Assembly: GCA_039589315.1 (NCBI GenBank)
Contig: JBDHHQ010000105.1
Coordinates: 1-17,987, forward strand
DNA: 17,987 nt
Source: Gemmatimonadota bacterium
GTDB lineage: Bacteria > Gemmatimonadota > Gemmatimonadetes > Longimicrobiales > Gaopeijiaceae
Direction: 5' to 3'
The notes under the pieces are model-generated. The model searched no databases. It saw only the letters and a program-made list of their open reading frames with translations, and had not been told where the DNA came from. This document shows positions 1 to 17,987 of the stretch, piece after piece (the first letter of the stretch is position 1; every line of letters begins with the position of its first letter). Made by a program: the position numbers and the translations under genes.

Positions 1-32
1 CGCTCGTACTGGTGCAGCAGATCGTCACGCAT
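1..32 (-). CDS. tssF: T6SS baseplate subunit TssF, N-terminus only (runs off the window edge)
   Basis: ATG at 32-30 overlaps the tssE stop (TGATG). It reads MRDDLLHQYER, a typical TssF start (xLLxxYERELxxLR), and tssE-tssF is the usual gene order. Only 10-11 codons are visible. Confidence 0.75.
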   Translation of the reverse strand, partial: MRDDLLHQYE

Positions 33-505
33 CAGACCGCCCCGCCCACCGTGAATTTCCCGGAGGAGATCTCCAGGACCGTGTCGAAGACCACCCTCTC
101 CGGGTTCGGCTCCATCTCCAGCGTGGCCTTGACCTTGAACCGGATCTCCTTCTTCCCGGTCTCGCTCGTCGTGGAGACCGTCACCCGGACTCCGCTCAGG
201 CGGGGCTCGAACAGCTCGATGGCCTCCTTGATACCGCGGGCGAGGACGCGAGGCGTCTCCGGAGAGGTGGCGCTGAGGGAGCTGATGTCGGGCAGTCCGT
301 ACCGGAAGAGCGATTGATCCAGCTCCGTCAACGCCTCCGGCACTTCGACGGGCGTACGCCGCGTGTTGAGAAGCCAGTCCAGGTCCCGAAGCACGTGCTC
401 TCGCAGGCGGTTCGCGGACGCGACCCACGTCCTTGGCTCGTCTTCCTCGATGATCCGGTCCAGAAAGGACTGCTGGACCGTCCGCTCGTCGCTACGCGTC
501 GCCAT
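32..505 (-). CDS. tssE: T6SS baseplate subunit TssE (gp25-like), 157 aa
   Basis: Motifs SFLDRII, VLRDLDWLLNTRR, SLFRYGLPD and AIELFEPRLSGVRV. Start placed at ATG 505 (MATRSDERT), overlapping the tssA stop; the extension to 853 in the ORF track overlaps tssA. Confidence 0.93.
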   Translation of the reverse strand: MATRSDERTVQQSFLDRIIEEDEPRTWVASANRLREHVLRDLDWLLNTRRTPVEVPEALTELDQSLFRYGLPDISSLSATSPETPRVLARGIKEAIELFEPRLSGVRVTVSTTSETGKKEIRFKVKATLEMEPNPERVVFDTVLEISSGKFTVGGAV

Positions 506-2369: not shown

Positions 2370-2431
2370 CGGCGGCTACGGCCCCGTGGCAGGCGTGACG
2401 CAGGGGAACAGGTGGAGCGCGGTCACGCCGG

Positions 2432-3145
2432 TCAGCTCGGCGGCGTACTGCTCGCCGTGATCTCGAGCTCGCGAATCTCCAGGATGGGGATCTCCTCGCC
2501 GTCCACGAGGAAAAGCTTCTGGCCCAACGGAAACTCCAGGCCGTCGTCCTCGACCCAGGCGGTCATGCGCCCCAGACGTACCGTGTCCTCTGGGTCCTGG
2601 TACGTCAAAGGCGAAAGAACCGGAAGAAGAACCTCGCCCAATTCCAGCCGCTCGAATCCGGGGCCGGTCTGCACCGTCGCTGGTGTCCACAGGAGGTCCC
2701 GGAGCCGACGCGGAGGCTCGATAGCCACTGATGCCAGGTGCTGCAGCGGCATCCAGGTGTACTCGCCAGCCGCGAAGAACTCGAGCCGGGCACCGAGCCG
2801 TGGATCCGCATCTTGCAGGCTTTCGAACGGGCGTCCGTTCAGCGTGCCGGAGACCGGAGCAGGGCCGGTATCCCCCGGGAAGGCACCCGCGCGGAACATC
2901 TCCTCCCGGGTGGTCGCGGCGTGCAGGGCGCTCCGGTACAGCCAGGCACCCATGCCGGCTTCCGGGCTGGCCCCGGCCACGATCTCCAGATGCTTGCCGG
3001 CGCGCTCGAAGTCGCCGGCGAAGCAGAGCAGCTCGAAGAGAAAGGTCCGGCGCCGAGCGTCGGCGGGATCGTCCCGAAGCTCGGCGCCGAGAACCTCGAT
3101 CGCCTCATCCAGCCGGCCCGCCTCGTAGAGGGCCTGGGCTCTCAC
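2432..3145 (-). CDS. tagJ: T6SS accessory protein TagJ/ImpE (SciE/HsiE family), 237 aa
   Basis: Motifs LYEAGRLDEAI, DPADARRRTFLFELLCFAGDFERA, DADPRLGARLE, PPRRLRDLLWTPA, VRLGRMTAW and GQKLFLVDG. GTG start. Confidence 0.92.
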   Translation of the reverse strand: MRAQALYEAGRLDEAIEVLGAELRDDPADARRRTFLFELLCFAGDFERAGKHLEIVAGASPEAGMGAWLYRSALHAATTREEMFRAGAFPGDTGPAPVSGTLNGRPFESLQDADPRLGARLEFFAAGEYTWMPLQHLASVAIEPPRRLRDLLWTPATVQTGPGFERLELGEVLLPVLSPLTYQDPEDTVRLGRMTAWVEDDGLEFPLGQKLFLVDGEEIPILEIRELEITASSTPPS

Positions 3146-3155
3146 GGCGACCCCG

Positions 3156-3641
3156 TCAGATCGACACCGCCATCACGTCCCAGCTGGCGACCTGGGGCGA
3201 ACCCTTGGCGCCGGTCTCGGTCTGGGGCGTGAACGTGAACGTCACCTTACCGAAGTCCATGGCGATCTGGTCGATGGAGCGATCATCCCCGCCCGAGCTC
3301 CCGGACTGGTTGTAGCTCGAGATGTAGCACTTCTCGAACTCGAGGACTAGGTAGTCCACCGCCTCTTCACCACCCGCCTTGTGTAGCGTGATCTTGGCCG
3401 TGGGGTAATGCATTCCCTTGCAGCAGGCCTGGAAGATGGCCGGGCTGGAAGCATCCGTGTACTTGGTGAGCATGATCGGCGACATGACGGCCTTGCCGGC
3501 GCCGCCTCCCCCTCCGGACCCGATGGTGGTGGGGTTGCTCACGTTCATGTTGAAGCTCATCAGCTCGATCTTCCCCTCGAAGCCCTTACGGGTGGACTCC
3601 CCTTCGACGCCTTCGATTTCAAAGAACGCATCGTACGCCAT
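3156..3641 (-). CDS. hcp: T6SS tube protein Hcp/TssD, ~161 aa
   Basis: Motifs DAFFEIEGVEGES, IELMSF, GAGKA, TKYTDASSPAIFQACCKG and ISSYNQSGS. SD-like GGGAGA lies 7 nt before ATG 3641 (alternative ATG at 3647). Confidence 0.95.
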   Translation of the reverse strand: MAYDAFFEIEGVEGESTRKGFEGKIELMSFNMNVSNPTTIGSGGGGGAGKAVMSPIMLTKYTDASSPAIFQACCKGMHYPTAKITLHKAGGEEAVDYLVLEFEKCYISSYNQSGSSGGDDRSIDQIAMDFGKVTFTFTPQTETGAKGSPQVASWDVMAVSI

Positions 3642-3673
3642 GGCCATGTCTCCCGAGAGAGTGTTTCAGATAC

Positions 3674-3699
3674 GAAGAAGCGCCCTCCGGCGCCTCTCC
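3674..3699 (-). other. Intergenic RNA stem-loop between tssC and hcp
   Basis: Minus strand GGAGAGGCGCC-ggag-GGCGCTTCTTC forms an 11-bp stem including 2 G-U pairs. There is no clear U-tract. Confidence 0.5.
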
Positions 3700-3712
3700 A
3701 AGATGACCTGTT

Positions 3713-5172
3713 TTACGCCGAGGCCGGAGCGGGAAGATCGGCCACGAGGCGCATGGACACGCTCAGCTCGTCGAGCTGGAAGTGGGGCCTCATGAACGCG
3801 ATCGCCCGGTACGCGCCGGGTTTGCCCGGGATCTCCATCACGTCGATGCGCGCTTCGCGCAACGGACGCTTCGCCTTGACCTGGGCCGAGGCATCGTCAT
3901 TGCCCACGACGTAGTTGGAGATCCAGTTGTTCAGGAACTGCTCCGCTTGGCTGCGAGACATGTAGCTGCCGATCTTGTCCCGCATCATCGACTTCAGGTA
4001 GTGGGCGAACCGCGACGTGGCGAAGATGTACGGGAGCTGCGCCGAGATCCTGGCGTTGGCGGTCGCGTCGTCCGAGTAGTACTCCTTGGCCTTCTGCGCC
4101 GATTGGACGCTGAAGAACGCCGCGTTGGGCGTGCCCTTCTGGTGTACGAGAGGCGCGAAGCCGAGGTCCGCCAACTCCTTCTCGCGCCGATCCGTGATCT
4201 GGCACTCGGTGGGGCACTTCATGGCGATGTCAGCCCTTCCACCAGCCCGCCGCTTTCCACACCCCGGATCATCGCGCACCACCCGTACTTGGCGAAGGCC
4301 TCCGTGACCCGGGCGCCCAACGACCAGGCCGCGTTGCCCCACAGGTACCGGTCGTGCTCGGTGCCGTCGACGCCTTCCTCGAAGTTGAACGCCTCGACGG
4401 GCACCGATTCCAGCCCGTAGGGATCCCTGAGCAGCATCCGCGGTAGCGTGAGGGCCACGTAGCGGGCGTCCTCGGTCTCCCGGAACGCCTTCCATTTGGC
4501 GTACTCGGTCGTGTCGAAGATCTTCGCCATGTCCCGGGGCTGGTCGAGCTTCGTGTAGCTCTCGAGGTTGAACATCTCGTTCGAGGCACCCGTGATGAAC
4601 GGGGCGTGGGCCGCGGCAGCGACCTGCGACACCTTCTCCAGCAGCTCGATGTCCTGCCCGCCCTTGGAGAACTCGTAGTCTCCCAGCAGAGCCCCGAAAG
4701 GGGCGCCGCCGAAGACGCCGTACTCTTCCTCGTAGACCTTTTTGAACAGCGCGCTCTGATCGAACTCCGGCGCCTTCTGGAGGTCCTTGAGCAGGTCCTT
4801 CTTGGACACGTTCAAGATCTTCAGCTTGAGCATGACGCTGGTCTCTGTCTGATCCAGCAGGTACCGAAGCCCACGCCAGGTGCCTTCCAGCTTCTGGAAG
4901 TCGGGGTGGTGCATGACTTCGTTCAGCTGGGCGGACATGAGCTGATCGATCTGCGCGATACGGGCGTTGATCATCGACTCCGTATCGGGGGAGACCGTGA
5001 TCGTGCCCTCGAGGACCTCGCCCACGAACCGCTTGATCATGTCCCGGCCGCGCTCGACGGCAGGTGCCGCCTTGCCGAAACGACCCGACTCGACGATCTG
5101 GTCGAGTAGGCTGACCTCTTCTTGAGCCTCTGCTGCTGCTGCTGCTGCCTTCTCAGCCTCGGGATTCGCCAT
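3713..5172 (-). pseudogene. tssC: T6SS contractile sheath large subunit TssC (VipB), split by a frameshifting deletion at ~4229-4231 (real lesion or sequence error)
   Basis: The 5' part (5172-4231) has HHPDFQKLEGTWRGL, EFDQSALFKKVYEEEYG and IRGVESGGLVEGL. The 3' part (4228-3713, another frame) has IAMKCPTECQITDRREKELADLGF, RFAHYLK and RPHFQLDEL. The conserved PxHxFxTDxG segment between them is missing. SD-like GGAGG/GAGGG lies upstream of ATG 5172. Confidence 0.9.
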
Positions 5173-5243
5173 CGAACCCTCCCTTTGAACCGCTCGTCTG
5201 GGATTCTCTTCTAAAACGGCTGACGACCTTCAATGCCGCCAAC

Positions 5244-5771
5244 TCAGGACTCGTCGTCCTCGGATGGCGCCTCGGACGCCAGCTCTTCCTTCAGCTTGTC
5301 CCGCTTCTCCTCGTCGCCCAACGTGCTCTGGATGATCTCGTCCAACGCCTCGTTGCCCTGCAGCTTTCCACGGAGGTCCGCCAACTCTTGTCGGAGCTCG
5401 AGGAGCTTCTTCAGGGCCGGCACCTGCTGGGCCACACGGTCGGGGTCGAAGTCGTCGAGGCTCTCGAACGAGAGGTCGACGCCGATCTTTCCGGCCTCCG
5501 GGTCGTCCGAGAGCTTGTTCTCGACCGTGAACTGCAGGTGCGGATTCATGCTCTCGAGGACGTCGTCGAAGTTGTCCGGGTTCACCTCGGTGAACTTCCG
5601 ATCTTTCAGCCGGTCCAGCGGCTCCTTCGGCTGTCCGGTGAAGTCACCGAGAATGCCCATCACGAACGGCAACTCCTTCATCTCGATGGCGTCGCCCGTG
5701 TGGACCTCGTAGCTGATGTTCACGCGCGGGGGGCGGACACGGCTGAGTTTCTTGTGAACGCTCTCTGCCAT
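5244..5771 (-). CDS. tssB: T6SS contractile sheath small subunit TssB (VipA), 175 aa
   Basis: Motifs RVRPPRVNISYEV, KELPFVMGILGDF, DNFDDVL and FESLDDFDPDRVAQQVPALKKLLELR. SD-like GAGGGAG upstream. Confidence 0.97.
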   Translation of the reverse strand: MAESVHKKLSRVRPPRVNISYEVHTGDAIEMKELPFVMGILGDFTGQPKEPLDRLKDRKFTEVNPDNFDDVLESMNPHLQFTVENKLSDDPEAGKIGVDLSFESLDDFDPDRVAQQVPALKKLLELRQELADLRGKLQGNEALDEIIQSTLGDEEKRDKLKEELASEAPSEDDES

Positions 5772-5938: not shown

Positions 5939-5968
5939 ACCTTATCGGCAGTGTCTGGCGTTTGTCAA
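5939..5968 (-). promoter_or_regulatory. Putative sigma70-type promoter for the tssB operon
   Basis: Minus strand TTGACA (5968-5963), 18-nt spacer, TAAGGT (5944-5939), about 170 nt upstream of tssB in the divergent intergenic region. A perfect -35 box is uncommon in GC-rich DNA. Confidence 0.5.
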
Positions 5969-5996
5969 GGAGAATTGGCTGCTCCCGTCTCCTCGC

Positions 5997-6025
5997 TTGC
6001 GCCGGCCCACCCGGGGGCGCATGGT
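5997..6025 (+). promoter_or_regulatory. Weak candidate sigma70-type promoter for tssK copy 1
   Basis: TTGCGC-N17-CATGGT about 85 nt upstream of ATG 6112; partial consensus match only. Confidence 0.25.
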
Positions 6026-6111
6026 GGTGCTCCCGATCAGGAAGCGCGTAGCGCGGCGCCATGCCGCGACCGGCGTCGACACCCGTCGAATCGAGCGGAG
6101 GCCCGGATTCT

Positions 6112-7464
6112 ATGAGGCAGATGCAGAGCGTGCTGTGGGCCAAGGGCGTCCTGCTTACCCCTCAGCATCTTCAAACGCAGGACCGGTTCATCGAGGACCT
6201 GCTGGGTTTCCAGCTGTCCTCCTTGTCCTTCTGCCCCTGGGGCTTCAGCCGGCTCGAGCTCGACCGGGAGGCCCTGGCAGGGGGCGTTCTGGCCATCGCG
6301 AGCGCCTCGGGAATCATGCAGGACGGCCTGATCTTCGAGATCCCCGAATCGGATTCTCCGCCCGCCCCCAAGCCGCTGGAGGACCACTGGCTCGAGGATG
6401 AGGACGCCATGGACGTGCTGTTGGCCATCCCCGAGCACCGGGTCGGGGGCTACAATGTCTCCCTTGCGGACCAGGACCGGACCACCCGGTATCTGGCCGA
6501 GGTCCTCCTGCGGCGGGATGAGAATACCGGCCGGGAGGAGAAGCCGATCCAGGTGGCGCGGAAGAACTTCCACCTGCTGACGGAAGGCGAGTCGCTCGAG
6601 GGGTTTTCCACCATGACCGTGGCACGCGTCGAGCGAACGGCCACGGGTGAGTTCCACCTCGACGAGACGTTCGTGCCTCCACTGCTGGACATCTCCGCGA
6701 GTGAGTTCGTCCTGTCGATCGCGCGACGTCTGGTGGAGATCCTATCCACGCGAAGCAGCCTGCTTTCGGGCACCCGCCGGCAGCGGGACCAGTCGCTCGC
6801 CGATTTCGGTGTCTCCGACGTGGCCAACTTCTGGCTGCTCTATACCGTCAACACGCACCTCCCCGAGCTCCGCCACCTCTACGAGAGCCGGCGGGGGCAT
6901 CCCGGCGCGCTATTCGAGGCCATGCTGGCTCTGGCAGGGTCGCTCACCACCTTCTCGCAGACCGTCGAGGTCCGGGATCTGCCGGTTTACGACCACGCCA
7001 ATCTCTCGACGTGTCTGACCCAACTGGATCAGCAGGTGCGGGAGCTACTCGAAACCGTGATCCCGGCCCACCACGTGGCCCTGCCGCTCAAGGAAGTGCG
7101 TCCTTCGGTGCAGGCGACGGCCATCGACGACGACCGGTACCTGGCGGCGCCCCAGATCCTGCTGGCCATCCGGGCAGGGGTGAGCAAGGACAAGGTCATC
7201 TCCGGCGCCCAGCAGCTCAAGATCAGCTCTCCCGACCGGGTGGAGCGGCTGATCAGCCGGGCCTTGCCCGGCGTGAAGCTCGCGCACTCCCCGACTCCAC
7301 CCCGGGCGGTCCCGGTGAAGCTCGATTACGAGTACTTCAGGGTCGAGCGGTCCGGCGACGACTGGGACGCGGTGCGCACCGCCCGCAAGCTGGCCGTGTA
7401 CGTCCCGTCCGACCTCCCCGACGCCGAGATGGAGCTGGTCATCCTGCTGCCCGAGGACGACTGA
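6112..7464 (+). CDS. tssK: T6SS baseplate subunit TssK, paralog 1, 450 aa
   Basis: Motifs VLWAKGVLLTPQHLQTQDRF, PWGFSRLELD, ASGIMQDG, DVANFWLLYTVN, HPGALF, YDHANL, SRALPGV and LAVYVP. Start ATG 6112 follows GGAGG (6097-6101), rather than 6061. Confidence 0.95.
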   Translation: MRQMQSVLWAKGVLLTPQHLQTQDRFIEDLLGFQLSSLSFCPWGFSRLELDREALAGGVLAIASASGIMQDGLIFEIPESDSPPAPKPLEDHWLEDEDAMDVLLAIPEHRVGGYNVSLADQDRTTRYLAEVLLRRDENTGREEKPIQVARKNFHLLTEGESLEGFSTMTVARVERTATGEFHLDETFVPPLLDISASEFVLSIARRLVEILSTRSSLLSGTRRQRDQSLADFGVSDVANFWLLYTVNTHLPELRHLYESRRGHPGALFEAMLALAGSLTTFSQTVEVRDLPVYDHANLSTCLTQLDQQVRELLETVIPAHHVALPLKEVRPSVQATAIDDDRYLAAPQILLAIRAGVSKDKVISGAQQLKISSPDRVERLISRALPGVKLAHSPTPPRAVPVKLDYEYFRVERSGDDWDAVRTARKLAVYVPSDLPDAEMELVILLPEDD

Positions 7465-7581
7465 CCGGGCGTAGGATCTCCAGGGACGGGTCCCCACCCG
7501 ACTCCGACGCGCAGTTTCCCCCGAGAAGGTAGAGGGAATCCGCTACTGGAGCGCCGCGCCGCGAGACGGGTGACCCTGTGG

Positions 7582-10080
7582 TCAGGTCCCGGTCGCCTCG
7601 TCGGGGGTGGCGGCCGAGTCCTGTGCCGGCGGCTCGTCCATGAGGCGACGGATGGACGGGCCCGCAAAGCGCCACACCACCAGCGCCACCACCGTCATCA
7701 GGGAGATCAGCACCGCAGCCACGACCACCCCGATCACGAGCCGTCGCGAGGGCCCCTGCGACAGCGCTCCTGACGGTGTATCGGCCGGTGGCGCCGACAG
7801 CGACCCTGGCGGCGCGTCCGTGAGCGGAATCGCCTTGATGATCTGCGAGTACTCGCTCGGCCCCCCTCGCCGCCCTGACGCCGGCGGGCTTCCGGCTGCC
7901 GGGCCTCCGCCGGTGGCCGGAGGCGGCGGCGGTGGTGGCGGAGCCTGACCCCCGACGCGACCAGTGGAGCCCGGCTCGTCTCTCGAGCGCAAACGCTCCA
8001 GGTAGTCGGACGAAATGTCCGGCAAACCCGATCCAGCCCCCGGACCACCGCCCTTCTCCGGCGCATCCGCGAACAGGCCGCGGTCAGGCGGCCGGGGGGC
8101 GGCGCCGCCGGCCGGATCGGGCCCGCGACCCAGCTCGAACTGCCGCGTCAGGGGCCCAGGCTCGGTCGGAGGCGGCGGGCCCGGGGCTCGGGGTGGCGGC
8201 TCGGTCGGCGGTGGTCGAGACGGAGGAGCGGTGGACGGCAGAGCCGGGGGCGGGGGTGGAGGCGCGGACGGGGGCGGGGGCGGCACGTCGACCGAGGGTT
8301 CGCTCGCCGCCGATGCGGCCGGGGTCTCGTCGAGGGGGAGCTCCTCCTCCCACGGCAGCACCACACGCGGGCCTGGGAGGGGTGGCTCCGGCGTTCCTGC
8401 CGGCGGCGCTGGTGGCTCCGGCCCGGCCTTCTGCGATGCTGGCGGCTCAGCGTCGCCGGACTGCGGCCCGGCCAGCTCCTGCCAGGGTCCCGGGGGCAGG
8501 GCTGGTTCCTCCGTGGCCGAAGGGGGGTGGGCGCCCGCTTCGTCGTCGATCTGGAACGACCCGAGCACGGGCTCGGCAGGAGCGGGTGGTGGCTGAGGAC
8601 GCTCCGAATGCGGCGGTGGGCTGGGCTCGGTGCTCTCCGGAGCGGAAGCTTCGAATGACGGCTCCGACTCGGGGGGCTCGCGGAAGGCCTCGAAAAGCTG
8701 AGTGAACTCCCCCTTCTCGGGCTCCTGCGGCGGTGGCCCGCTGGGCTCACCAGCGACGGGCTGCTCCTGCACCGTCTCGCGATCCTCAGCGACGGGCGGC
8801 GGCGGCACCGTCTCCCGACCCTCAGCCTCCTCTTCAGGTGCCGTCTGTGGCTGTGTCGAATCCTCGGTGTCCGTCAGCGCCTCGAATGCGGCCGTGAGGC
8901 CACCGGGCACTCCCAGTGTGGGCTCCGGCTCCGTCGGTGCCTCCTCGGGCACCACGGGAATGGCCGCCTCGACGGTGGGCGCCTGGGTCGGCACATCGGT
9001 CGGCTCCGCCCTCGCCGCCGCTTCCGCCGGGTCCGGCGACTCGGCCGACGCCGCGTCCGCCGGCTCCTCGACTTCGGCAGGCTCCGGGGCGGCGGCCGGC
9101 TCCCCGACGTCGACCAGCTCCGCGGTCCCCGGCGGATCCTCGGTCCCGGCCGGCTCTTCGGCCTCCTCGAAGGCGGCGAACGCCGCGGTGAGCCCACCTT
9201 CGGCTGCGGGCCCGTCCTGCCCGCCCGGCGACGCGTCCGCCGGGGCAACCGGCGGCGGCGCATCATCGCCCAGCGTCGGGAGGTCCCCACCCACCGTGGC
9301 GTCGGCATCGTCCGAATGCGGCATCGCCGCGGCCGCCTCCTGCGACAGCGTCGGCAGGATCGAATCGAGCGTTGCCGCCCCGTCGGCTGGGTCGGCGCCG
9401 GAAGGCGCCGAGCCGGGAGGAAGCTCGGGATCAGCCACGGGGGGCACCGCCGGTACCGCGGTGACCCCCACGGACTCCGCGAGCGCGTCGGCGTCGGCGG
9501 AAACCGGCTCAGCGTCAGGAACCACCACGCTCGGCTCCGAGGGGAGCTCCTCTGTCGCCGAGGCCGGAGCCGACGGCACGCTCGCTGCCGCGGTGTCCGG
9601 GCGCCGCTCCTCCACCAGAGGCTCGGTCACCCGCTCGCCCGCCGGCGCGTCGACGCCAGCGGGAGCCCGCTCGGCGCTCGGGAGGGCCTCGGCCGGCTCC
9701 GCGGGGGCCGCCGGCTCCTCGGTTGCAGCGGGGGGTGGGCGCACCCCCTCATCCTCCGGGGCCACTTCCGGCGTGTAGCCCTCGGCTTCGGCCGCCGCGA
9801 GCCTCTCGTCGAACCAGCTCTCCAGCGACACGAAGTCGAGCAGGAACTTCGTGACCAGGACCGGCGAGCCCTCCACGTCCAGCGTTTCCAGGATGCGCGT
9901 GCGATCCACGGGCAGGAGACGCTGGGTCGCTTCCTCCGCTCGTTTGGCCTGCTCGGGCCCGGTGAAGACATGGACCATCACCACCGCGCCGCCCGGGCCG
10001 ACCGCGTGGAACGTGCCCACGCCGGCTTCCGTGACCCGCTTGAGAAGCTGGTACCGAGATCGGAATTCGTCGCCGGTCAT
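7582..10080 (-). CDS. Hypothetical single-pass membrane protein (~832 aa): degenerate Ser/Thr-kinase N-lobe-like domain, long Pro/Ala/Glu-rich disordered region with repeated short motifs, C-terminal TM helix
   Basis: 2.5-kb open frame filling the gap between the tssK copies. Globular N-terminal ~95 aa (RYQLLKRV, VVMVHVF, LDVEGSPVLVTKFL) and hydrophobic segment LVIGVVVAAVLISLMTVVALVVW at ~7672-7740. Start is uncertain (ATG 10080 or TTG 10119). Confidence 0.8.
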   Translation of the reverse strand: MTGDEFRSRYQLLKRVTEAGVGTFHAVGPGGAVVMVHVFTGPEQAKRAEEATQRLLPVDRTRILETLDVEGSPVLVTKFLLDFVSLESWFDERLAAAEAEGYTPEVAPEDEGVRPPPAATEEPAAPAEPAEALPSAERAPAGVDAPAGERVTEPLVEERRPDTAAASVPSAPASATEELPSEPSVVVPDAEPVSADADALAESVGVTAVPAVPPVADPELPPGSAPSGADPADGAATLDSILPTLSQEAAAAMPHSDDADATVGGDLPTLGDDAPPPVAPADASPGGQDGPAAEGGLTAAFAAFEEAEEPAGTEDPPGTAELVDVGEPAAAPEPAEVEEPADAASAESPDPAEAAARAEPTDVPTQAPTVEAAIPVVPEEAPTEPEPTLGVPGGLTAAFEALTDTEDSTQPQTAPEEEAEGRETVPPPPVAEDRETVQEQPVAGEPSGPPPQEPEKGEFTQLFEAFREPPESEPSFEASAPESTEPSPPPHSERPQPPPAPAEPVLGSFQIDDEAGAHPPSATEEPALPPGPWQELAGPQSGDAEPPASQKAGPEPPAPPAGTPEPPLPGPRVVLPWEEELPLDETPAASAASEPSVDVPPPPPSAPPPPPPALPSTAPPSRPPPTEPPPRAPGPPPPTEPGPLTRQFELGRGPDPAGGAAPRPPDRGLFADAPEKGGGPGAGSGLPDISSDYLERLRSRDEPGSTGRVGGQAPPPPPPPPATGGGPAAGSPPASGRRGGPSEYSQIIKAIPLTDAPPGSLSAPPADTPSGALSQGPSRRLVIGVVVAAVLISLMTVVALVVWRFAGPSIRRLMDEPPAQDSAATPDEATGT

Positions 10081-10378
10081 CGTTCGAGAAAGGAGCGGTT
10101 CGCGGGCCGCATCACGCAACCTCCTGCGCGGCGGCGCGAGTGCGGGGCGCGGCGGACCACGACGGTTGGGCCGAGGCCAGCCCTTTCCGGGGTCCAGAAG
10201 CGGGGGTGGTCCGGCGAGCCCCGCCCATGCTTGTTCAGCCGCATTTCACCCGCCATCATAGTACTGGCGACCCCAGGGGGGGGCAATCGAGTGACCGGTT
10301 GCCCCGCCCACCGGTGCGCGCGCAGCGGGGGCACGGCCGCTCATTCCCTTCGTCGACGCTGGAGGATAGCTCGAACCC

Positions 10379-11773
10379 ATGCTGTCACTGTCGCGAGTGG
10401 TGTGGCGCGAGGGGATGCATCTCGCTCAGCACCACTTCCAGGCCCAGAGTCGATACGTCGAGGAGTCGGCGACGCTCGCCGTCACGAGCGTGTTCTTCAA
10501 GTCCTACGGCCTCGTAGCCCTCGAGGTGGACAACGATGCCGTACGGAACGGCGCAGTGGCTCTTCGTCATGCCCGTGGAGTGATGCCGGACGGACTCCCG
10601 TTCCAGTTCCCGGACGAGCCGCTACCTCCGCCGCTGGAGCTGAAGGACCGCTTCTCCCCGACCAGCGATAGCCACCTGGTTCTCCTGGGGATTCCGGCCT
10701 ATCGCCTCGGCCGTCCCAACTGCCAGATCGACGACGGAGCCGCCGGTGACCCCGTACGCTACAGGAAGGCCACCCGCAGCGTCGCCGACGAAACGACCGG
10801 GCGGGACGCGAAGACCATCGACCTGGCGGAGAAGAACTTCCGGCTCCTCCTTGACGGTGACCCGACGGACGACCTGGTCACGATGCCGGTGGCCCGGGTG
10901 CGGCGGGACGGAGCGGGGAATTTCGAGTACGATCCGGACTACATTCCGCCCAGCCTTCAGATCGGTGCGAGCCCGCGCCTGATGGATCTCCTGGCTCGGT
11001 TGGTGGAGATCCTCGACCAGCGGGCCGAGTCGATGGCCCAGGAGCGCCAGGCAAGACGAGGCGGGTTCTCGGATTTCGCGGCGAGGGAGGTGGCCAGCTT
11101 CTGGCTCACCCACACGATCCACTCCTCCCTCACACCACTTCGCCACCACCAGCAATCCCGGACTCTGCACCCTGAGCAGCTTTTCAGGGAGCTTTCCCGG
11201 CTCGGCGGCGCGCTATGCACGTTCGGCCTGAACTCACACCCACGGACGCTGCCGCTGTACGACCACGACCGGCTCGACGAGTGCTTCGGAGTCCTGGACC
11301 GGCACATCCGCAGTCATCTGGATCTGGTTCTGCCCTCGAACAGCGTCGTCATCCCGCTCGAGGCAGCCGATCCCCTCACGCTGGACGCCAAGAATGCCCA
11401 GGGTCTGAGCGCAGCCACCTTCCATACGGCGACGATCGGGGATCAGCGCTGCTTCGGAGAAGCCGAGTGGTTTCTCTCCGTCCGCTCCAGCGCGAGTGGC
11501 GCCGACGTGGTGTCCGGCGTGCCCAGGCTCGCGAAGCTCTGCTCTGCGGAGGACATCGTCAAGCTCGTGCGCAGGGCGCTCCCGGGGCCCCCGCTGGAGC
11601 CGGTCGCCGTTCCCCCCTCGGCCATCGCGCCGCGGCTGGGAGCCCACTACTTCCGCATCGAGCGGTCGGGTCCGGCCTGGGAGGTCATCGCCAAACGCCG
11701 TACCCTTGGCGTCTATGTTCCGGACGGCATCCCCGACGCGGCGCTCGAGCTGGCCATCGTCCTGGGCTCCTGA
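10379..11773 (+). CDS. tssK: T6SS baseplate subunit TssK, paralog 2, 464 aa
   Basis: Motifs RVVWREGMHLAQHHFQAQ, ARGVMPDG, YIPPSL, EVASFWL, HPEQLFRELSRLGGALCTF, YDHDRL, RRALPG and LGVYVP. SD GGAGG at 10361-10365. Confidence 0.95.
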   Translation: MLSLSRVVWREGMHLAQHHFQAQSRYVEESATLAVTSVFFKSYGLVALEVDNDAVRNGAVALRHARGVMPDGLPFQFPDEPLPPPLELKDRFSPTSDSHLVLLGIPAYRLGRPNCQIDDGAAGDPVRYRKATRSVADETTGRDAKTIDLAEKNFRLLLDGDPTDDLVTMPVARVRRDGAGNFEYDPDYIPPSLQIGASPRLMDLLARLVEILDQRAESMAQERQARRGGFSDFAAREVASFWLTHTIHSSLTPLRHHQQSRTLHPEQLFRELSRLGGALCTFGLNSHPRTLPLYDHDRLDECFGVLDRHIRSHLDLVLPSNSVVIPLEAADPLTLDAKNAQGLSAATFHTATIGDQRCFGEAEWFLSVRSSASGADVVSGVPRLAKLCSAEDIVKLVRRALPGPPLEPVAVPPSAIAPRLGAHYFRIERSGPAWEVIAKRRTLGVYVPDGIPDAALELAIVLGS

Positions 11774-11855
11774 CTGTCCGTGTCTTACGTGATGACCCGA
11801 CACCGGCGCTTCGCGATACCATGTTCGCTTCACATCCGTCCTTCATTGGCTGACC

Positions 11856-12632
11856 ATGGACCAAACCCGAGCGTCTGAGCCGTCTCCCCGGCGGGGTGCC
11901 CTGGCCCTGAGCCTTCAGGAGGCGTTTACGGTCACGGTGCGCCTGCGGGCCGACCGACAGATCGCCTCGGACGCCACCTCGTTCCGCAACCACATCAAGC
12001 AGCTCCTCGGCGCCGCCGACCGGAAGGCTCGGGGGGCGGGATACGACCCGCAGTACGTGAAGCTCGCGGTCTACGCCTTCATCGCGTTCTTGGACGAGTC
12101 GGTGCTGAGCTCGCGGAATCCCGTGTTCGCGGAATGGCACCGGCGTCCGCTCCAAGAAGAGATCTTCGGGGACATGCTGGCCGGGGAGGCTTTCTTCGAC
12201 AACCTGAGAGACCTGCTCGCCAGGCAGGACTCCGAGGACCTCGCCGATCTACTCGAGGTCTACCAGCTGTGCATGTTGCTGGGGTTCGCGGGCAGGTTCG
12301 CGGCGGGTGACGGCGGAGAGCTCCGGGCCCTGGTAGCGACGGTTTCCGACAAGATCATGCGCATCCGCGGTGGGGCCGAGCCCATCTCGGCATCCTGGGC
12401 TCTGCCCGAAGGCGAGCAAGTCCGGGTCACACGTGATCCCTGGGTGAAGCCGATGCGGATCGTGGCCGGGGTAGCTCTGGGCCTCACCGTGCTGCTTTGG
12501 GTCGGCTGCTCGCTCTCCCTCAACGGGAAGGTGCGCGATATCGAGGCGGCAGCCGAGTCGGTCCAGGTCTCACTGCTGACGCACACGGACGGAGCCGCGG
12601 TCGGACCCTCGGCCATGGGGGCGGCACAATGA
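11856..12632 (+). CDS. tssL: T6SS membrane protein TssL (DotU family), no OmpA-like domain, 258 aa
   Basis: Motifs AVYAFIAFLDESVL, WHRRPLQEEIFG, AGEAFFDNL and LLEVYQLCMLLGFAGRF; C-terminal TM helix IVAGVALGLTVLLWVG. Confidence 0.95.
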   Translation: MDQTRASEPSPRRGALALSLQEAFTVTVRLRADRQIASDATSFRNHIKQLLGAADRKARGAGYDPQYVKLAVYAFIAFLDESVLSSRNPVFAEWHRRPLQEEIFGDMLAGEAFFDNLRDLLARQDSEDLADLLEVYQLCMLLGFAGRFAAGDGGELRALVATVSDKIMRIRGGAEPISASWALPEGEQVRVTRDPWVKPMRIVAGVALGLTVLLWVGCSLSLNGKVRDIEAAAESVQVSLLTHTDGAAVGPSAMGAAQ

Positions 12633-15600
12633 TGCAGCGGATGATCCCCTGGATAGGTGGTGGCGGGACGTTCCTGCCTTTTGCCGCAGGCGCCCAGGCA
12701 TCGGGCGGTATGCTTGGACTGGAGGGAGCAGGTCTCCGTATCGTCCAGGCGATCCTGATCTTCGCGGGACTCTCCGTCTCTCTGGTCGTCTTCTGGGCCC
12801 TCTACGCCCGGATGAAGCGGAAGCAGGTCGCCGCGGGCCCTCCGGACGAGATCGACACCCTCACCGCCAGAGCGGAGAAGCGCCTCGCGACGTCGAGCCT
12901 CTCCGAGACGTCCAAGCTGGGCAAGCTGCCCCTGGCCCTCGTCCTGGGCCCGTCGGGTGGCTGCAAGACGACCGCGGTCACCCGTTCGGGCCTGGAGCCC
13001 GAGCTGTTGGCCGGTGAGGTCTACAAGGGCGACGTGGTAGTGCCCACCCGGGACATCAACGTCTGGTTCGCTTCGGACATGGTCTTCCTGGAGGCGGGCG
13101 GCAAGGTCGTGACCGACGAGGCCAGGTGGAACCGTCTGGTGCGGAGAATCCGGCCCGGGAGCTTCGCCGCGGCGTTGGGACGGGGTCGGCAAGCGCCGCG
13201 CCTCGCGCTCGTCTGCGTGAGCTGTGAGGAGTTCCTCAAGCCGGGCAGCTCCGAGTCGGTGCCCGCGCTGGCCAACTCGCTCAGGGAGCGTCTCACGACG
13301 GTGTCTCAGGAGATGGGGATCCGGCTCCCCGTCTACGTGCTGTTCACGAAGACCGACCGCCTGCCCTACTTCGACGACTTCGTCCGCAATCTCACGGGAT
13401 ACGAGGCCGAGGAGGTCTGGGGCGCGACCCTGGACGTGGAGAGCACCACACAGGACGCCGCTTTCGGAGAGCGGCGCGCGCAGCACGTTGCCGACCTCAT
13501 GCGCCGCATCAGCCAATCGCTGGCACTGCGAAGGCTCAACGTGCTCCCCCGCGAGACCGACGAGGACGTCAAGACGGGCGCGTACGAGTTCCCGCGTGAG
13601 TTCGGGAAGATCCAGCAGCTGGCCGAGCAGTTCCTGCTGGAGTTGACGCGTCCCAGCCAGCTCAGCATCAGCCCATTCCTCAGAGGCTTCTACTTCACCG
13701 GCGTCCGAGCGGTAGTCGTCACGGATCCCGGCACGGGTGGTGCGGCTCCCGCCTCGGCGCTCCTCGATCACGCCGGTCCGGGGGACCCGGGAGCGACCCA
13801 GGTCTTCACACCTCACATGATCAGTGCTGCCGTCGAGCCGCAGCCCAGCGCCCAGGGAGCCGGGCGCAAGGTCCCGCAGTGGCTGTTCCTGAAGCAGGTG
13901 TTCAAGGGCATCCTGCTGCAGGACCAGGTGGCCATGGGCGTGACCGGCGGTGGCTCGAGGGTGCAGCTGGCGCGTCGACTCGCGCTGGGATTGGCGACGG
14001 CGGGGCTGGCGGCGCTGATGGCCTGGATCGGGATCGCTTACGCCTGGAACGACTCCTGGGCCGTGCGGGCCGCTCGCGCCATGCAAGCCACCGAGGGCGT
14101 CATGGCCGACCCCGATGGCGTGGCCGTCCTCGACGATCTGAATCGCCTCGACACGCTACGGGATGTGACCGTGGCCATGGGTGAGAGCGCCCGCCACGGC
14201 CGACGCTGGATCCACCTGGGCCTGTACCGAGGCCATCGGGTCCACGAGCGACTCCGAGAGGGCTACTTCGGGGGTCCTTTCCGGCGTGCGCTGTGGGAGC
14301 CGGCCAGAGGCAACCTGCTGGACTCCCTCCAGGCCTGGGACACGCGGGCCGACACGATGCGGGACTATACGGCCAACTATGATGCGCTCAAGGCGTATCT
14401 GGTCATGACCCAGTACCCCGACAGCAGCTCGGCGGACTTCCTCGCTCCGCTGCTCAGGCGGTACTGGACCGCCAGCCACCTGCCCGAGCCCGAGCGCGAC
14501 AGCCTGGGAACCAGCCAGTTCACCTTCTATGCCGACGAGCTCCCCTACGGAAACCCGTATGCCTTGGCAGCGGATGATGCGCTCGCCGGCCGGACGCAGG
14601 ACTTCCTTCTCGACGCCCTGCGCGCCGAGCCCTTCTACCGACGACTCACGGCCGACGTGTCCGAGGCTCTCGGACCCACGGAGTATAAGACCGACGTCGC
14701 GTGGTCGAACCACGTCGTCGACGGGGCCTACACCGCGGCGGGCTGGGTCCAGATGATGGACCGCCTGGACCGGCTCGGCCAGGTCCTGGGGTCGGAGGAC
14801 TGGGTGCTGGGCAGGCGGGTGCCGGACGCTCGCATCGAGGCCTTGGCGGACGAGATCGGTGACCGGTATGTCACGGACTACGTGCAGCAATGGCAAACCT
14901 ACCTCGGTGAAGGCGAGGTAGCCGGCTTCCAGGGCCTGGGTGACGCCGCGAGCAAGCTCCAGGTGCTCACCGGAGGTCAGTCGCCGCTCCTGAGGCTGAT
15001 TGCCCTCGCGGCCGACAACGCGGCCGTCGGCGTCGAGGCCGTTGACAGCGCGTTCCAGCCCGTGTTCGCGGTCACCCCGGTGGGCTCGTCCGAGCGCCCT
15101 GCCGTGCCCGAGAACCAGGAGTATGTGCAAGCGCTGAGCGGTGTGTGGCAGGCGATGGATGAAGCCGCCCAGGCACCCGACGATCAGGCGAGGAACAACG
15201 CGCTGGGAGGAGCCGGACGAGCGGTGCGCCAAGCCGAAACCGCGGTGCTCACCATCGACCGGGAGCTCATCTCCAGCCCGCTCACCGAGCCGGCGCGGGT
15301 GAGCGTCCTCCGCTTGCTGGGCGCCCCCCTGCGATCGGCGTCACGCCTCATCAGCGTCGTGCCCTCTGCGGATCTGAACTCGGGCGGCGCCAGCTTTTGC
15401 CGGTCGTTCGGGGATCTTACGTCAGCTTATCCGTTCCGGGCGTCCGGCGACGACGCGGACTTCGAGACGCTGTCGGCCATGCTCCAGCCTGGCTCGGGCC
15501 TCCTCTGGAGCTACCTCGACGGCAACTGGGCAGGCCTGCTGGAGCGGCGCGGCAGCGGATACGCGGCCAGAACCGGCGCCAACCCCCAGCCCACGGCCGG

Positions 15601-16066
15601 TTTCGTTCGCTTCTTCGATCAAGCCGCCGCCATTTCACGCTCGTTCTATCCGGGCGACGGATCACAGGCCCGCATCGATTTCTCCTTGCGACCCCAGGTG
15701 TCGGCCCCCATCGAAAGCGTGGAGATCGACATCGACGGCAATCGGCAGCGCTTCACGGCCACGGACCGGCCCAACGGCGTCTTCGCGTGGGAGGAGGAAC
15801 GCGCCCGGGGCGCCGGGATGACCATCGCCTACCAGGACGGGTCAGCCGAGACGCTGGCCGTTCCCGACGGACCCTGGGCCCTGTTCCAACTCCTGGGCCT
15901 GGCCCAGCCATGGGAGGACCGGGGACAGGACCGCTACGTCATCCGGTGGCCCATCGAGGGCCGGCAGGAGACCTTGGCCGCGCAGTTGGTGCTGCGGACG
16001 CCTGCACGCGTGCTGGATGCCCGGTACCTCGCCAACCTGCAGTGCGTCTCCCGGGTGGCGCGGTAG
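12629..16066 (+). CDS. tssM: T6SS membrane complex subunit TssM (IcmF), ~1145 aa
   Basis: Walker A-like LVLGPSGGCKTT..SGL, RLPVYVLFTKTDRLPYF, FLRGFYFTG, TM helix at ~13975-14045, YDALKAYL, YVQQWQTYL and GPWALFQLL. The start overlaps the tssL stop (ATGATG at 12629-12634). Confidence 0.95.
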   Translation: MMQRMIPWIGGGGTFLPFAAGAQASGGMLGLEGAGLRIVQAILIFAGLSVSLVVFWALYARMKRKQVAAGPPDEIDTLTARAEKRLATSSLSETSKLGKLPLALVLGPSGGCKTTAVTRSGLEPELLAGEVYKGDVVVPTRDINVWFASDMVFLEAGGKVVTDEARWNRLVRRIRPGSFAAALGRGRQAPRLALVCVSCEEFLKPGSSESVPALANSLRERLTTVSQEMGIRLPVYVLFTKTDRLPYFDDFVRNLTGYEAEEVWGATLDVESTTQDAAFGERRAQHVADLMRRISQSLALRRLNVLPRETDEDVKTGAYEFPREFGKIQQLAEQFLLELTRPSQLSISPFLRGFYFTGVRAVVVTDPGTGGAAPASALLDHAGPGDPGATQVFTPHMISAAVEPQPSAQGAGRKVPQWLFLKQVFKGILLQDQVAMGVTGGGSRVQLARRLALGLATAGLAALMAWIGIAYAWNDSWAVRAARAMQATEGVMADPDGVAVLDDLNRLDTLRDVTVAMGESARHGRRWIHLGLYRGHRVHERLREGYFGGPFRRALWEPARGNLLDSLQAWDTRADTMRDYTANYDALKAYLVMTQYPDSSSADFLAPLLRRYWTASHLPEPERDSLGTSQFTFYADELPYGNPYALAADDALAGRTQDFLLDALRAEPFYRRLTADVSEALGPTEYKTDVAWSNHVVDGAYTAAGWVQMMDRLDRLGQVLGSEDWVLGRRVPDARIEALADEIGDRYVTDYVQQWQTYLGEGEVAGFQGLGDAASKLQVLTGGQSPLLRLIALAADNAAVGVEAVDSAFQPVFAVTPVGSSERPAVPENQEYVQALSGVWQAMDEAAQAPDDQARNNALGGAGRAVRQAETAVLTIDRELISSPLTEPARVSVLRLLGAPLRSASRLISVVPSADLNSGGASFCRSFGDLTSAYPFRASGDDADFETLSAMLQPGSGLLWSYLDGNWAGLLERRGSGYAARTGANPQPTAGFVRFFDQAAAISRSFYPGDGSQARIDFSLRPQVSAPIESVEIDIDGNRQRFTATDRPNGVFAWEEERARGAGMTIAYQDGSAETLAVPDGPWALFQLLGLAQPWEDRGQDRYVIRWPIEGRQETLAAQLVLRTPARVLDARYLANLQCVSRVAR

Positions 16067-16150
16067 CAAGGCGAACGCGGTGGCAGCAAGACGATGTCGT
16101 GAGTTACGTCGCGGAAGCGGCGAGTGAGATACACAAACGAGGTGTCGCTC

Positions 16151-16798
16151 ATGAAAACCCAGCGGGTAGCTGGTCGGACCTGGCTCATCTACGGTGCTCT
16201 GTTGTGTCTACCGCTCACGGCGTGCGGCGGCGGGCCCGATACGCCCGGGCCCGAAGCATTGCCCCCGATCCCGACGATGGACCGCCTGTATCGAGACGCC
16301 GTCAGCGGCATGCGGGACTCGGTCAGGTTGGTGATCCGGGACCAGGCCGCCCTGGACGACGCCTGGTCGAGGGCCACCTCCGAGCAACTCGAGATGCCCG
16401 CGGTGCCGGCCGTTGATTTCGGGCGCGAGATGATACTGGTCGCAGCCGCCGGCCGGATGACGACGGAAGACGCCATCGAGGTCGCCGCGGCCGGGGTGCA
16501 GCGCCGGCGCACCCAGCAAGGCGATGACGTGGACGTGCTCGTCGTCCAGGTACGGACGTTCAAGGGCTGCGGGCGAGTGACCGCCGACGCCTTCCCCGTG
16601 GACATTGTCAAGGTCACGCGCTTCCAGGGACGGGTGCAGTGGGAGGAGGAGACCCAGCAGGAAACGGAATGCGGCCCTGAGCCGGAACGACAGGCCTCCC
16701 TTCTCGGGTCGCCCGACCAGGCGGCCGTGAGCGGCACCGGCCCGCCGACCCCGGCCGACGGTCTAGTGGCATCGCAGCGCACGTCCTCCCATCCCTGA
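16151..16798 (+). CDS. Putative lipoprotein with a PrcB C-terminal-like domain, 215 aa
   Basis: Basic N-terminus, hydrophobic core and lipobox LTA-C (Cys25, 16223-16225). LVIRDQAALDDAW and PAVDFGREMILVAAAG resemble the PrcB_C family pattern (recalled, not searched). SD-like GAGGTG upstream of ATG 16151. Confidence 0.75.
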   Translation: MKTQRVAGRTWLIYGALLCLPLTACGGGPDTPGPEALPPIPTMDRLYRDAVSGMRDSVRLVIRDQAALDDAWSRATSEQLEMPAVPAVDFGREMILVAAAGRMTTEDAIEVAAAGVQRRRTQQGDDVDVLVVQVRTFKGCGRVTADAFPVDIVKVTRFQGRVQWEEETQQETECGPEPERQASLLGSPDQAAVSGTGPPTPADGLVASQRTSSHP

Positions 16799-16806
16799 AT
16801 CGGCGG

Positions 16807-17987
16807 GTGGACAGCAACCCCGAGGGAGGCGTTGGCAATCCGGGACAGCCCGGTCCGGGAGGCCCCGGCCAGTATGAGGTGGGGTCGGTGCTCGCCGGCC
16901 GGTACCGGATCGTGCAGCTCCTGGGCAAGGGTGCCATGGGCGCCGTCTACCTCGGCGAGCATCTGAAGATCGGCCGAAAGGACGCGATCAAGGTGCTCCA
17001 GGCGTCCCTCGAGCGGGATTCGGAGTCGATAGCCCGGTTCACGCGAGGCGCGAGGAACGCTTCGTCGATCCGTCATCCCAACGTCTGCACCGTCTATGAC
17101 TTCGGGGAGACCCATGACGGCCTGGCATTCCTGGCCATGGAGTTCGTGGACGGCGAAAGCCTGTCGGATCTTCTCAAGCGCGAGGGCACGCTCCCCCTGG
17201 AGCAGGCCGGCGACATCCTCTCCCAGGTAGGTGACGCCCTCTCCGCCGCCCACGCGGCCGGAATCGTGCACCGGGACCTGAAACCCGCCAACGTGATGCT
17301 GGCCCAGCGACCCGACGGCTCGCCCCTCGCCAAGGTCGTGGATTTCGACATCGCGAAGGGAAGCGTCGAGGGGGAGGGTGACGAGGTTACGCGACTGGGC
17401 TACGTCGTGGGCACGCCCGAGTTCATGAGCCCGGAGCAGCTCACCGGGGATCCGTTGGACGGGCGCAGCGACGTCTATTCCCTGGGTGTGCTGCTATTCC
17501 GGGCCCTCACGGGCAGCCTCCCCCACATCGCGGACTCGACTCAGGAGCTCATGGTCAAGCGATTGACCGAGAGCCCCATGACCCTCAAGGAAGCGAACCC
17601 CGGGAACGACTACCCCACCTCCCTGCAGGCCCTGGTGGACCGTTCCCTCCAGCGAAAGGCCGCCGATCGCCTGGAAAGCGCCTCCGCGTTCAGCCGGGAA
17701 CTTCGGCGGATCCTCGCTGGCGTGGGCGCCGACCGGAGGTCCCAGAGCCGTGGCGCGACCGTGCCCGCTACCGAGGTCTCGCGGCCCGAGCACCTCACAC
17801 ACGGTCGCTCCGCGCCGGACGACGGACGGAAGTGGTGGCTGATCGGAGCCGGCGCTGTCGCCCTTGTCGCTGGGGTCGCCGTGGGTGCGATGGCTCTCCG
17901 AGGAGGTGGCGGCCATACGGTCACGATCGAGCCGGCGACGAGCACCGTCATGGTGGACGGCGCGCTGGCGCTCGCCAGCCGAGCTGT
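16807..17987 (+). CDS. Membrane-bound Hanks-type Ser/Thr protein kinase (PknB/PpkA-like), 3' end outside the window
   Basis: Translated by hand in frame +1: RYRIVQLLGKGAMGAVY, DAIKVL, HPNVCTVYDFG, HRDLKPANVML, KVVDFDIAK, GTPEFMSPEQ and DGRSDVYSLG. TM helix WWLIGAGAVALVAGVAVGAMAL at 17833-17898, then an Ig-like start TVTIEPATSTVMV. The GTG start at 16807 is tentative. Confidence 0.93.
   Translation, partial: MDSNPEGGVGNPGQPGPGGPGQYEVGSVLAGRYRIVQLLGKGAMGAVYLGEHLKIGRKDAIKVLQASLERDSESIARFTRGARNASSIRHPNVCTVYDFGETHDGLAFLAMEFVDGESLSDLLKREGTLPLEQAGDILSQVGDALSAAHAAGIVHRDLKPANVMLAQRPDGSPLAKVVDFDIAKGSVEGEGDEVTRLGYVVGTPEFMSPEQLTGDPLDGRSDVYSLGVLLFRALTGSLPHIADSTQELMVKRLTESPMTLKEANPGNDYPTSLQALVDRSLQRKAADRLESASAFSRELRRILAGVGADRRSQSRGATVPATEVSRPEHLTHGRSAPDDGRKWWLIGAGAVALVAGVAVGAMALRGGGGHTVTIEPATSTVMVDGALALASRA

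Follow-up and report, generated by a model that had tools for sequence, protein, structure and literature searches.

Gene content of the locus

The stretch of DNA analyzed here (the window; 17,987 nucleotides) is the entire contig JBDHHQ010000105.1 (C105) of a Gemmatimonadota assembly, GCA_039589315.1 (6.67 Mb, 95% complete), and it holds a type VI secretion system (T6SS) locus that encodes two TssK paralogs and lacks tssJ. On the plus strand, tssK1 (6112..7464; 450 amino acids; PF05936, E 4.6e-135; TIGR03353), for the first paralog of the baseplate-to-membrane connector, is followed on the minus strand by the gene for an 832-amino-acid protein with GEFTxxF repeats (7582..10080). The plus strand then carries tssK2 (10379..11773; 464 amino acids; PF05936, E 1.5e-124; TIGR03353), genes for the T6SS-i inner-membrane components TssL (11856..12632; PF09850) and TssM (12629..16066; 1,145 amino acids; PF14331, PF06761, PF06744 and also PF21070), a lipoprotein gene (16151..16798) and a membrane Ser/Thr kinase gene truncated by the contig end (16807..17987; PF00069). 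TssL is of a short form with one C-terminal membrane segment by hydropathy and no match to the OmpA family. This order had been proposed in a first-pass annotation made from the letters of the window, and all of the genes it named lie where it had placed them.

That annotation had also pointed to a canonical tssJ just outside the window as one of two findings that would undo its claim of a distinct architecture, the other being a lack of conservation of the accessory genes. No such tssJ was found by profile hidden Markov model and phmmer searches of the host genome: PF12790 (TssJ) had no match at E≤1, and the best E value from three TssJ queries was only 0.015.

Distribution of the two-tssK architecture

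TssK family matches were found in 37 of 301 sampled Gemmatimonadota genomes (33 strong), comprising 30 genomes with two full tssK genes, two with one, one with a partial copy and four with weak matches. Among 41 genomes screened for TssJ, only the two carrying a single full tssK gave a match; all 38 with a tssK pair were negative. A profile of the N-terminal domain of the repeat protein matched all 38 two-tssK genomes, once each, and none of 31 others. Of 80 related loci (loci bear L numbers), the nearest being Gemmatimonadota records, 57 hold both tssK genes and the other 23 stop short of tssK1. By BLAST, the repeat gene lies inverted between the two tssK genes in 54 of the 57, with a divergent 55th copy in L097. 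For the remaining two, L023 and L069, the gene sits at another place in the genome; one genome with a pair of loci carries two copies. One locus, L050, is the sole tssJ exception among the 80.

The arrangement extends to some Acidobacteriota. Plasmid pACIX901 of Granulicella tundricola carries tssK, an inverted hypothetical gene, tssK, tssL, tssM and a PP2C gene with no tssJ annotated; the product of the hypothetical gene shares the repeats and the anchor but lacks the N-terminal domain. In total, Granulicella tundricola and three more genomes on the Acidobacteriota side have the set of tssK1, repeat gene and tssK2-tssL-tssM. In the phylum of genome G325 (Thermoanaerobaculia), TssK matches occurred in 39 of 301 genomes, mostly singly, and three genomes (G569, G596 and G587) had a tssK pair and the repeat gene with no TssJ; the domain profile misses G569, which has no such domain, and G596, which was recovered only by local search, and gives one weak match (E 2.4e-4) in a single-tssK genome (G467). 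On this side TssJ was found in 0/3 two-tssK versus 2/2 single-tssK genomes, and the repeat gene in 4/4 two-tssK loci versus 0/9 single-tssK regions.

Judged from gene content, the core of this variant is two tssK genes, the repeat protein, tssL and tssM, nearly always with no tssJ, and the lipoprotein and kinase module are optional layers. The accessory genes whose conservation the first-pass annotation had set as a check divide: the repeat protein is as universal as the tssK pair, whereas strong lipoprotein matches occur in 23 of 38 two-tssK genomes, and only 11 of 42 loci have the entire kinase-PP2C-FHA trio. Its proposal of a distinct architecture without tssJ held up, in that the locus is a conserved, distinct T6SS-i variant of Gemmatimonadota and some Acidobacteriota, for which we infer a mechanism below.

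Departures from the common order were seen. In L165 (a Gemmatirosa plasmid; 9107-42542), some 30 kb separate tssK1 from the repeat gene and tssK2-tssL-tssM, and in G587 the distance is hundreds of kilobases; all parts are retained in both. Two single-tssK loci (L144 and L145, of G437 and G571) have three consecutive FHA-like genes upstream of tssK and no match to TssJ BLAST queries, possibly another TssJ-less arrangement.

Two TssK paralogs

TssK1 and TssK2 are 36% identical (168 of 463 columns). In a 95-row tree each forms one group (99 and 100) and the two are sisters (97); with long branches left out (49 rows) the values were 100/100 for each paralog and 100/99 for the pair, both trees being midpoint-rooted only. 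The TssKs of the Granulicella tundricola and Gemmatirosa plasmids fall within the K1 and K2 clades, and Acinetobacter TssK lies outside. As sister clades, K1 and K2 stem from one old duplication, and the candidate explanation of two merged T6SS loci of different subtypes was rejected. Within the first 45 residues, identity is 69% among K1 and 66% among K2 sequences and 38% between them, with fixed differences at positions 8, 11, 18 and 20.

The canonical baseplate has a single tssK, unlike the two paralogs found here. In the Escherichia coli wedge, two TssK trimers are bound via two TssG loops, which enter a cavity formed by the N-terminal 15 residues of TssK (PMC6300606). By analogy, K1 and K2 might occupy different baseplate positions as separate trimers, one per TssG loop of the wedge, an assignment to which we give even odds. 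A rather doubtful alternative is that the paralogs form obligate heterotrimers, or build two alternative baseplates under different conditions. It would suit the separate transcription directions of the paralogs around the repeat gene, the distance that can part K1 from K2 (G587 and the Gemmatirosa plasmid) and the neck being the part best conserved between them (40%), yet the host genome has a single tssF, tssG, tssL and tssM, and both copies occur together in 30 genomes as against at most one, fragmentary, genome with a lone partial copy.

A membrane-anchored protein with GEFTxxF repeats

The repeat protein matched no Pfam or NCBIfam family at E≤0.1. Its first 100 residues (9781..10080, minus strand) are predicted to form an isolated kinase N-lobe (predicted local distance difference test score [pLDDT] 94.9), and the model matches the N-lobes of CDK2 and CK2 (Foldseek E 6.5e-4, TMq 0.57). 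An alignment of this domain shows an invariant His37, which by the sequence pattern probably stands where the beta3 Lys would be; since there is no C-lobe, the protein presumably cannot by itself be a kinase. Pro makes up 23% of the remainder, which contains five repeat motifs and a single hydrophobic segment (residues 779-808; 7657..7746, minus strand) predicted from hydropathy to be a transmembrane anchor. It had been described in the first-pass annotation as a half-kinase disordered protein, and this description agrees with the N-lobe lacking a C-lobe and the Pro-rich remainder. All motifs lie on the minus strand: the best-fitting one reads GEFTQLF (8692..8712), three others are at 9178-9198, 8884-8904 and 8137-8157, and the terminal one, SEYSQII, is at 7837-7857.

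Motif statistics rest on the best 150 of 887 representatives from a profile search. Among these listed homologs, 102 of 106 longer than 300 residues have a membrane segment near the C terminus, and proteins of this length have a median of 4 GEFTxxF motifs (mean 4.2, versus 0.09 in shuffled sequences). The motif has F at positions 0 and +4 and L, I or M at +3; Thr occupies its place in 239 of 243 G[ED]FxxxF matches in the listed homologs, outnumbering Ser 239 to 3. The motifs are kept within an otherwise unalignable linker. Phosphothreonine recognition by FHA domains involves a hydrophobic residue at +3, and docking helices of the FxxLF type are also known; the motif is compatible with either.

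The divergent gap ahead of tssK2 contains a conserved sigma70-like element (TTGC, 17-21 nucleotides, TAnnnT; 10258..10286, minus strand) that faces the repeat gene. The pattern, picked after the sequences had been viewed, occurs in 43 of 49 such gaps (shuffled mean 1.7, maximum 6), and a looser one faces tssK2 in 14 of 49. In PMC13584744, the table of accessory factors has no entry resembling the repeat protein, and the available text contains neither "Gemmatimonad" nor "Acidobacteri". The protein is likely an undescribed core component, by its distribution.

An atypical kinase and an optional phosphorylation module

The kinase at the right end of the window retains the motifs GKGAMG, AIK, HRDLKPAN and SPE and the metal-binding Asp of its DFD (HRD at 17269, DFD at 17341 and a membrane segment at 17833-17898, plus strand). 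DFD is common to 11 of the 80 related loci, and a sequencing error was ruled out, as 11 other loci share it. The alphaC Glu is replaced by Gly (17047) in 13 of 13 aligned DFD kinases and retained in 4 DFG relatives. Elsewhere in the host genome, 39 kinases have Glu with DFG and 6 could not be parsed, and only the window kinase combines Gly with DFD. The host encodes at least 46 Ser/Thr kinase open reading frames (ORFs), up to about ten per contig. This coupled change suggests either an active enzyme with a moved acidic residue or an auto-inhibited or dead kinase. DFD in place of DFG is also found in the MNK1/2 kinases, where it favors an ATP-blocking conformation (PMC3326643); those kinases are eukaryotic, DFD here is coupled with the alphaC Glu-to-Gly change, and the comparison covers the DFD motif and the kinase fold.

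Contig C167 overlaps the right end of C105 at 95% identity and holds the C terminus of the kinase, a PP2C gene, a gene for an FHA protein with a trypsin-like domain and a CsgG-like gene. The same order runs uninterrupted in L021, and Pfam confirms the families on the L025 orthologs. With PP2C and FHA genes after the kinase, the locus resembles a PpkA/PppA/Fha-type module (TagE/TagG/TagH), in which a membrane Ser/Thr kinase, PP2C and FHA likewise follow tssM consecutively (PMC13584744); it differs in the DFD and alphaC Gly of the kinase, in the trypsin-like domain of the FHA protein and in its candidate substrate, a separate repeat protein rather than Fha or TssL. The phospho-signaling module of the first-pass annotation is only partly upheld: the unusual kinase and the membrane-anchored multi-motif protein are there, but they do not replace PpkA, PppA and Fha, since PP2C and FHA lie just past the window. 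Only 11 of the 42 loci whose flank reaches 3.4 kb or more have the full trio, which is thus an optional PpkA/PppA/Fha-like module. FHA domains are present in 41/41 two-tssK genomes, and a kinase or PP2C gene lies no more than a few genes past tssM in 4/4 loci on the Acidobacteriota side.

The gene for the FHA protein with a trypsin-like domain is followed by a convergent CsgG/TPR-like gene (C167:2521-4649; L025:18677-20864). CsgG-like genes, candidates for an envelope role, recur by tssM also in lipoprotein-free loci (L173, L134 and L023). The kinase that follows tssM in G587 carries a fused FGE-sulfatase-like domain (PF03781; L138:4971-6716), reminiscent of TagR of Pseudomonas.

From these parts we propose that the repeat protein would be a membrane-tethered, many-handed recruiter, held by its C-terminal anchor and reaching into the cytoplasm. 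A kinase of the PpkA type, in this locus the DFD kinase, would phosphorylate the GEFTxxF threonines, FHA domains would read them and PP2C would remove the phosphate, a cycle that may set the time and place of baseplate docking on TssL and TssM. Taken jointly, recruiter and phosphorylation-reading-docking are slightly favored. The motif Thr is kept in all 59 motifs of the 21 loci in which neither tssM nor the lipoprotein gene is followed by a kinase; the repeat protein is therefore not merely a substrate of the DFD kinase, and the earlier idea of a kinase-substrate pair needs loosening to that extent.

The same conservation would suit a different, unlikely reading, in which the repeats are phosphorylation-independent FxxLF-type docking helices that bind TssK, TssL or TssM, the protein is a structural tether offsetting the loss of TssJ, and the optional kinase module has other targets. 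The repeat gene is universal while the trio is not, the spacing of F at 0 and +4 with L, I or M at +3 would fit such a helix, and in G629, where the gene order is disrupted, the repeat gene still stands divergent to tssL-tssM; a precedent is Acinetobacter TsmK, a co-opted pseudo-enzyme that stabilizes a TssJ-less complex (PMC10564176). A purely structural role sits less well with the near-exclusion of Ser from the motif, which together with the hydrophobic residue three places on fits FHA recognition, or with the recurrence of a kinase or PP2C gene near tssM in all four Acidobacteriota-side loci and of FHA domains in every two-tssK genome.

A lipoprotein predicted to bind TssM

Of 56 loci with flank, 34 have the lipoprotein gene after tssM, and strong matches (E≤1e-24) occur in 23/38 two-tssK genomes versus 0/28 others. 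None of the 13 two-tssK genomes in family f5 has it, and it is also missing from the Acidobacteriota-side loci and from both plasmid loci (Granulicella tundricola and Gemmatirosa kalamazoonensis). A hydrophobic stretch with Cys (lipobox; Cys at 16223 here) is present in 33 of 34 family members, and two further Cys are invariant. None of the 34 matched PF12790 (TssJ) at E≤0.1. The PrcB likeness noted at first pass is weak when tested directly (NF033596, E 0.0018; PF14343 [PrcB_C] cut-off not reached, with one of 34 members at E 0.066 and none in the host genome) and stands transitively: four off-locus PF14343 members match the lipoprotein profile at E 3e-20 to 3e-14. Atlas matches (0.88-0.89) to PF14343 clusters are leads only. 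For the model of the lipoprotein (pLDDT 93.4), Foldseek gave nothing at E≤0.001 and a second structural comparison nothing above Z 2.2, and a wide fold search of 48,161 chains gave a best Z of 2.8 (root mean square deviation 4.4, 84 aligned residues); TssJ was not among the fold matches listed, but a difference in fold does not follow from this.

When the lipoprotein was modeled together with the C-terminal 235 residues of TssM, the complex scored 0.78 (0.75, 0.80 and 0.78), against 0.00 for the best of three controls, with 94% contact agreement between runs and partner pLDDT of at least 88. This mark is attained by 116 of 157 solved versus 2 of 215 mismatched pairs, a calibration only roughly valid for our own alignments, and a memory effect on the TssM side is possible because TssM-TssJ complexes have already been solved. 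In the model, lipoprotein residues 21-27 (16283-16303) pair with a TssM loop (15758..15781, plus strand), and a strand of the lipoprotein is predicted, with good probability, to pair with this loop of the C-terminal beta domain, directly after which TssM ends here and in 58 aligned rows. The length of the contact loop departs in 1 of 34 loci with the lipoprotein versus 18 of 24 without. In E. coli, TssJ binds the periplasmic domain at the C terminus of TssM (PMC3213119), and in the clades that have the lipoprotein, its predicted place on that domain would link the channel to the outer membrane. An anchoring lipoprotein peculiar to the system, as first suggested, is thus retained as a predicted TssM partner and not as a core part.

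It is quite improbable that the lipoprotein, rather than replacing TssJ, works for the FHA-protease encoded downstream or acts as a periplasmic activator of the kinase (compare PrcB-dentilisin and RtkS/TagQ-PpkA). Its distant PrcB_C kinship, its position directly before the kinase here and its retention beside a true TssJ in L050 would accord with such a role. Set against these, in 11 of 26 loci no kinase, PP2C or FHA gene stands behind the lipoprotein gene, yet it always follows tssM, which favors TssM as the partner, as do the predicted complex and the constraint on loop length.

Weighing the proposed system

The K1 and K2 paralogs are each retained in Gemmatimonadota and some Acidobacteriota, and by present sampling the repeat gene accompanies the pair and tssJ is almost always absent. 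As the best overall explanation we favor, at a probability of roughly 0.6, a system with two TssK paralogs and no TssJ in which the paralogs would take up different places in the baseplate, the repeat protein would act as recruiter and the lipoprotein would take the place of TssJ on TssM. A bolder version is tentative, and we lean against it: a separate T6SS-i lineage of Gemmatimonadota and Acidobacteriota with a rebuilt baseplate-to-envelope junction, in which each wedge would hold two specialized TssK trimers, the tail-anchored phospho-scaffold with its orphan kinase N-lobe would be a new core subunit, a convergent non-TssJ lipoprotein would serve some clades and none others, and the kinase would be active with the DFD Asp replacing the alphaC Glu.

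Several observations weigh against the favored explanation. L050 combines two tssK genes, the repeat gene and the lipoprotein with a true tssJ (E 1e-28), which together with a DFG kinase gene, both on the minus strand, separates tssK1 from the repeat gene (L050:5334-8142); its genome holds two such T6SS loci. The co-occurrence counts were made among kin, with partly overlapping genome sets, and are not independent trials. K1 and K2 diverge over their full length (38% identity in the shoulder, 40% in the neck and 31% in the head) and not in the N terminus alone, and the TssG loops look ordinary by eye (7 rows). In 15 of 38 two-tssK genomes no strong lipoprotein match was found, leaving neither lipoprotein nor TssJ to anchor the channel, and where the lipoprotein is present its interface residues are not specially conserved (29% versus 36% elsewhere) and two other TssM stretches vary in length in the opposite way (18/34 versus 1/24). 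The complete trio is lacking from most loci, FHA domains also occur in 17 of 31 genomes without this system, and a kinase without the alphaC Glu may be inactive. Lastly, the window copy may not fire, because its tssC is frameshifted.

It is very improbable that the architecture is an accident of inheritance, an ordinary T6SS-i that also carries a redundant tssK along with a passenger gene: the genomes are kin, the locus may have spread as a single block and TssJ is missing in 27.5% of 1,096 non-Acinetobacter T6SS genomes (PMC10564176), but both paralogs are intact across two phyla, the repeat gene is retained when relocated and doubled when the locus is doubled, and motifs in an unalignable linker and a promoter-like element are conserved.

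Relation to known systems

The Granulicella tundricola and Gemmatirosa kalamazoonensis plasmid systems have been placed, by TssB only, in a branch of subtype i4b (PMC9113992), whose families TssA-H, K, L and M, Hcp, VgrG and TagJ are all found here. In our analysis both plasmids have two tssK genes and the repeat gene; the gene table of that study has tssJ and tssK once each, and two tssK genes, the repeat protein and the lipoprotein are not discussed in its available text. Our own TssB tree (30 rows, no named i4b reference, one row badly trimmed) did not resolve the placement. With the canonical TssJLM and TssK-F-G assemblies of enteroaggregative E. coli (PMC3213119, PMC6300606) the system shares TssL, TssM, a lipoprotein predicted on the TssM C-terminal domain and two TssG loops or trimer positions; it differs in having no PF12790 gene, a PrcB_C-related lipoprotein and two tssK genes rather than one.

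The absence of tssJ alone is not rare, given the 27.5% reported in PMC10564176. The Acinetobacter T6SS described there also lacks tssJ and has co-opted an enzyme-derived domain in a locus-specific protein, but TsmK has a ketoacyl-synthase-like fold and acts with a TssM Gly-Ser linker, whereas no TssM aligned here has a C-terminal Gly-Ser tail and Acinetobacter TssK lies outside the K1/K2 clade. There is no unassigned tsmK-like gene in the window, although no dedicated TsmK query was made. We found no paper on this architecture in the accessible literature, which excludes most subscription journals and supplements, where such loci may be tabulated.

Tail arm and neighboring genes

A divergent tail and baseplate arm of the same system occupies 32..5771 on the minus strand, with tssB (5244-5771), tssC in two frames (3713-5172), hcp (3156-3647), tagJ (2432-3145), tssA (492-2369) and tssE (32-472), so that the T6SS-i set of tssA, B, C, D (hcp), E and K is present by Pfam and NCBIfam. 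Contig C175 overlaps the left end of C105 exactly and holds tssF, tssG and tssH (clpV), and two vgrG genes lie on C91, all identified from translations and BLAST to NCBI-named Granulicella genes; with FHA and PP2C on C167, the genes to be sought in the flanks at first pass (fha, pppA, clpV and vgrG) have counterparts in the assembly, tssJ excepted. The split of tssC lies at 4219-4232, where a relative's contig, from run X2, is longer by 31 bases (at 4231); tssC is intact in the same-genus genome G001, and the frameshift reflects faulty assembly or else a lesion of recent origin. A search of sequencing runs listed no RNA run, and the best DNA share was 0.17.

TssB-TssC fusion-like ORFs often lie between tssB and tssK1 (for example L037:5608-7053, PF05591 with PF05943), and the host genome has three stand-alone tssB/tssC-like copies (C2:627-2087; C83, about 4737-6140; C33:28222-30258), two of them seen as single ORFs. 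One or two S-adenosylmethionine-dependent methyltransferase genes (PF05175; PF10119 with PF21782) stand between tssB and tssK1 in L036 (3595-6892), L056 and L098, where protein-methylation control is possible. A likely effector island in the host (C91:1680-24127) has an orphan hcp, the two vgrG genes and, from translations only, DUF2169-like, PAAR-like and Rhs-like genes.

Implications

A single gene supplies the two TssK trimers, in non-equivalent positions, of the model T6SS wedge; where two tssK genes are conserved in nature, each trimer position could be examined by itself. A second way of anchoring TssM by a lipoprotein is also predicted in this lineage, which has clades with none as well, and this bears on how TssM reaches the outer membrane without TssJ. 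Two hosts are in culture, Granulicella tundricola and Gemmatirosa kalamazoonensis, both with lipoprotein-free plasmid loci. According to a review from 2026 on accessory factors (PMC13584744), T6SS-i is confined to Pseudomonadota, whereas the system described here appears in about a tenth of sampled Gemmatimonadota genomes.

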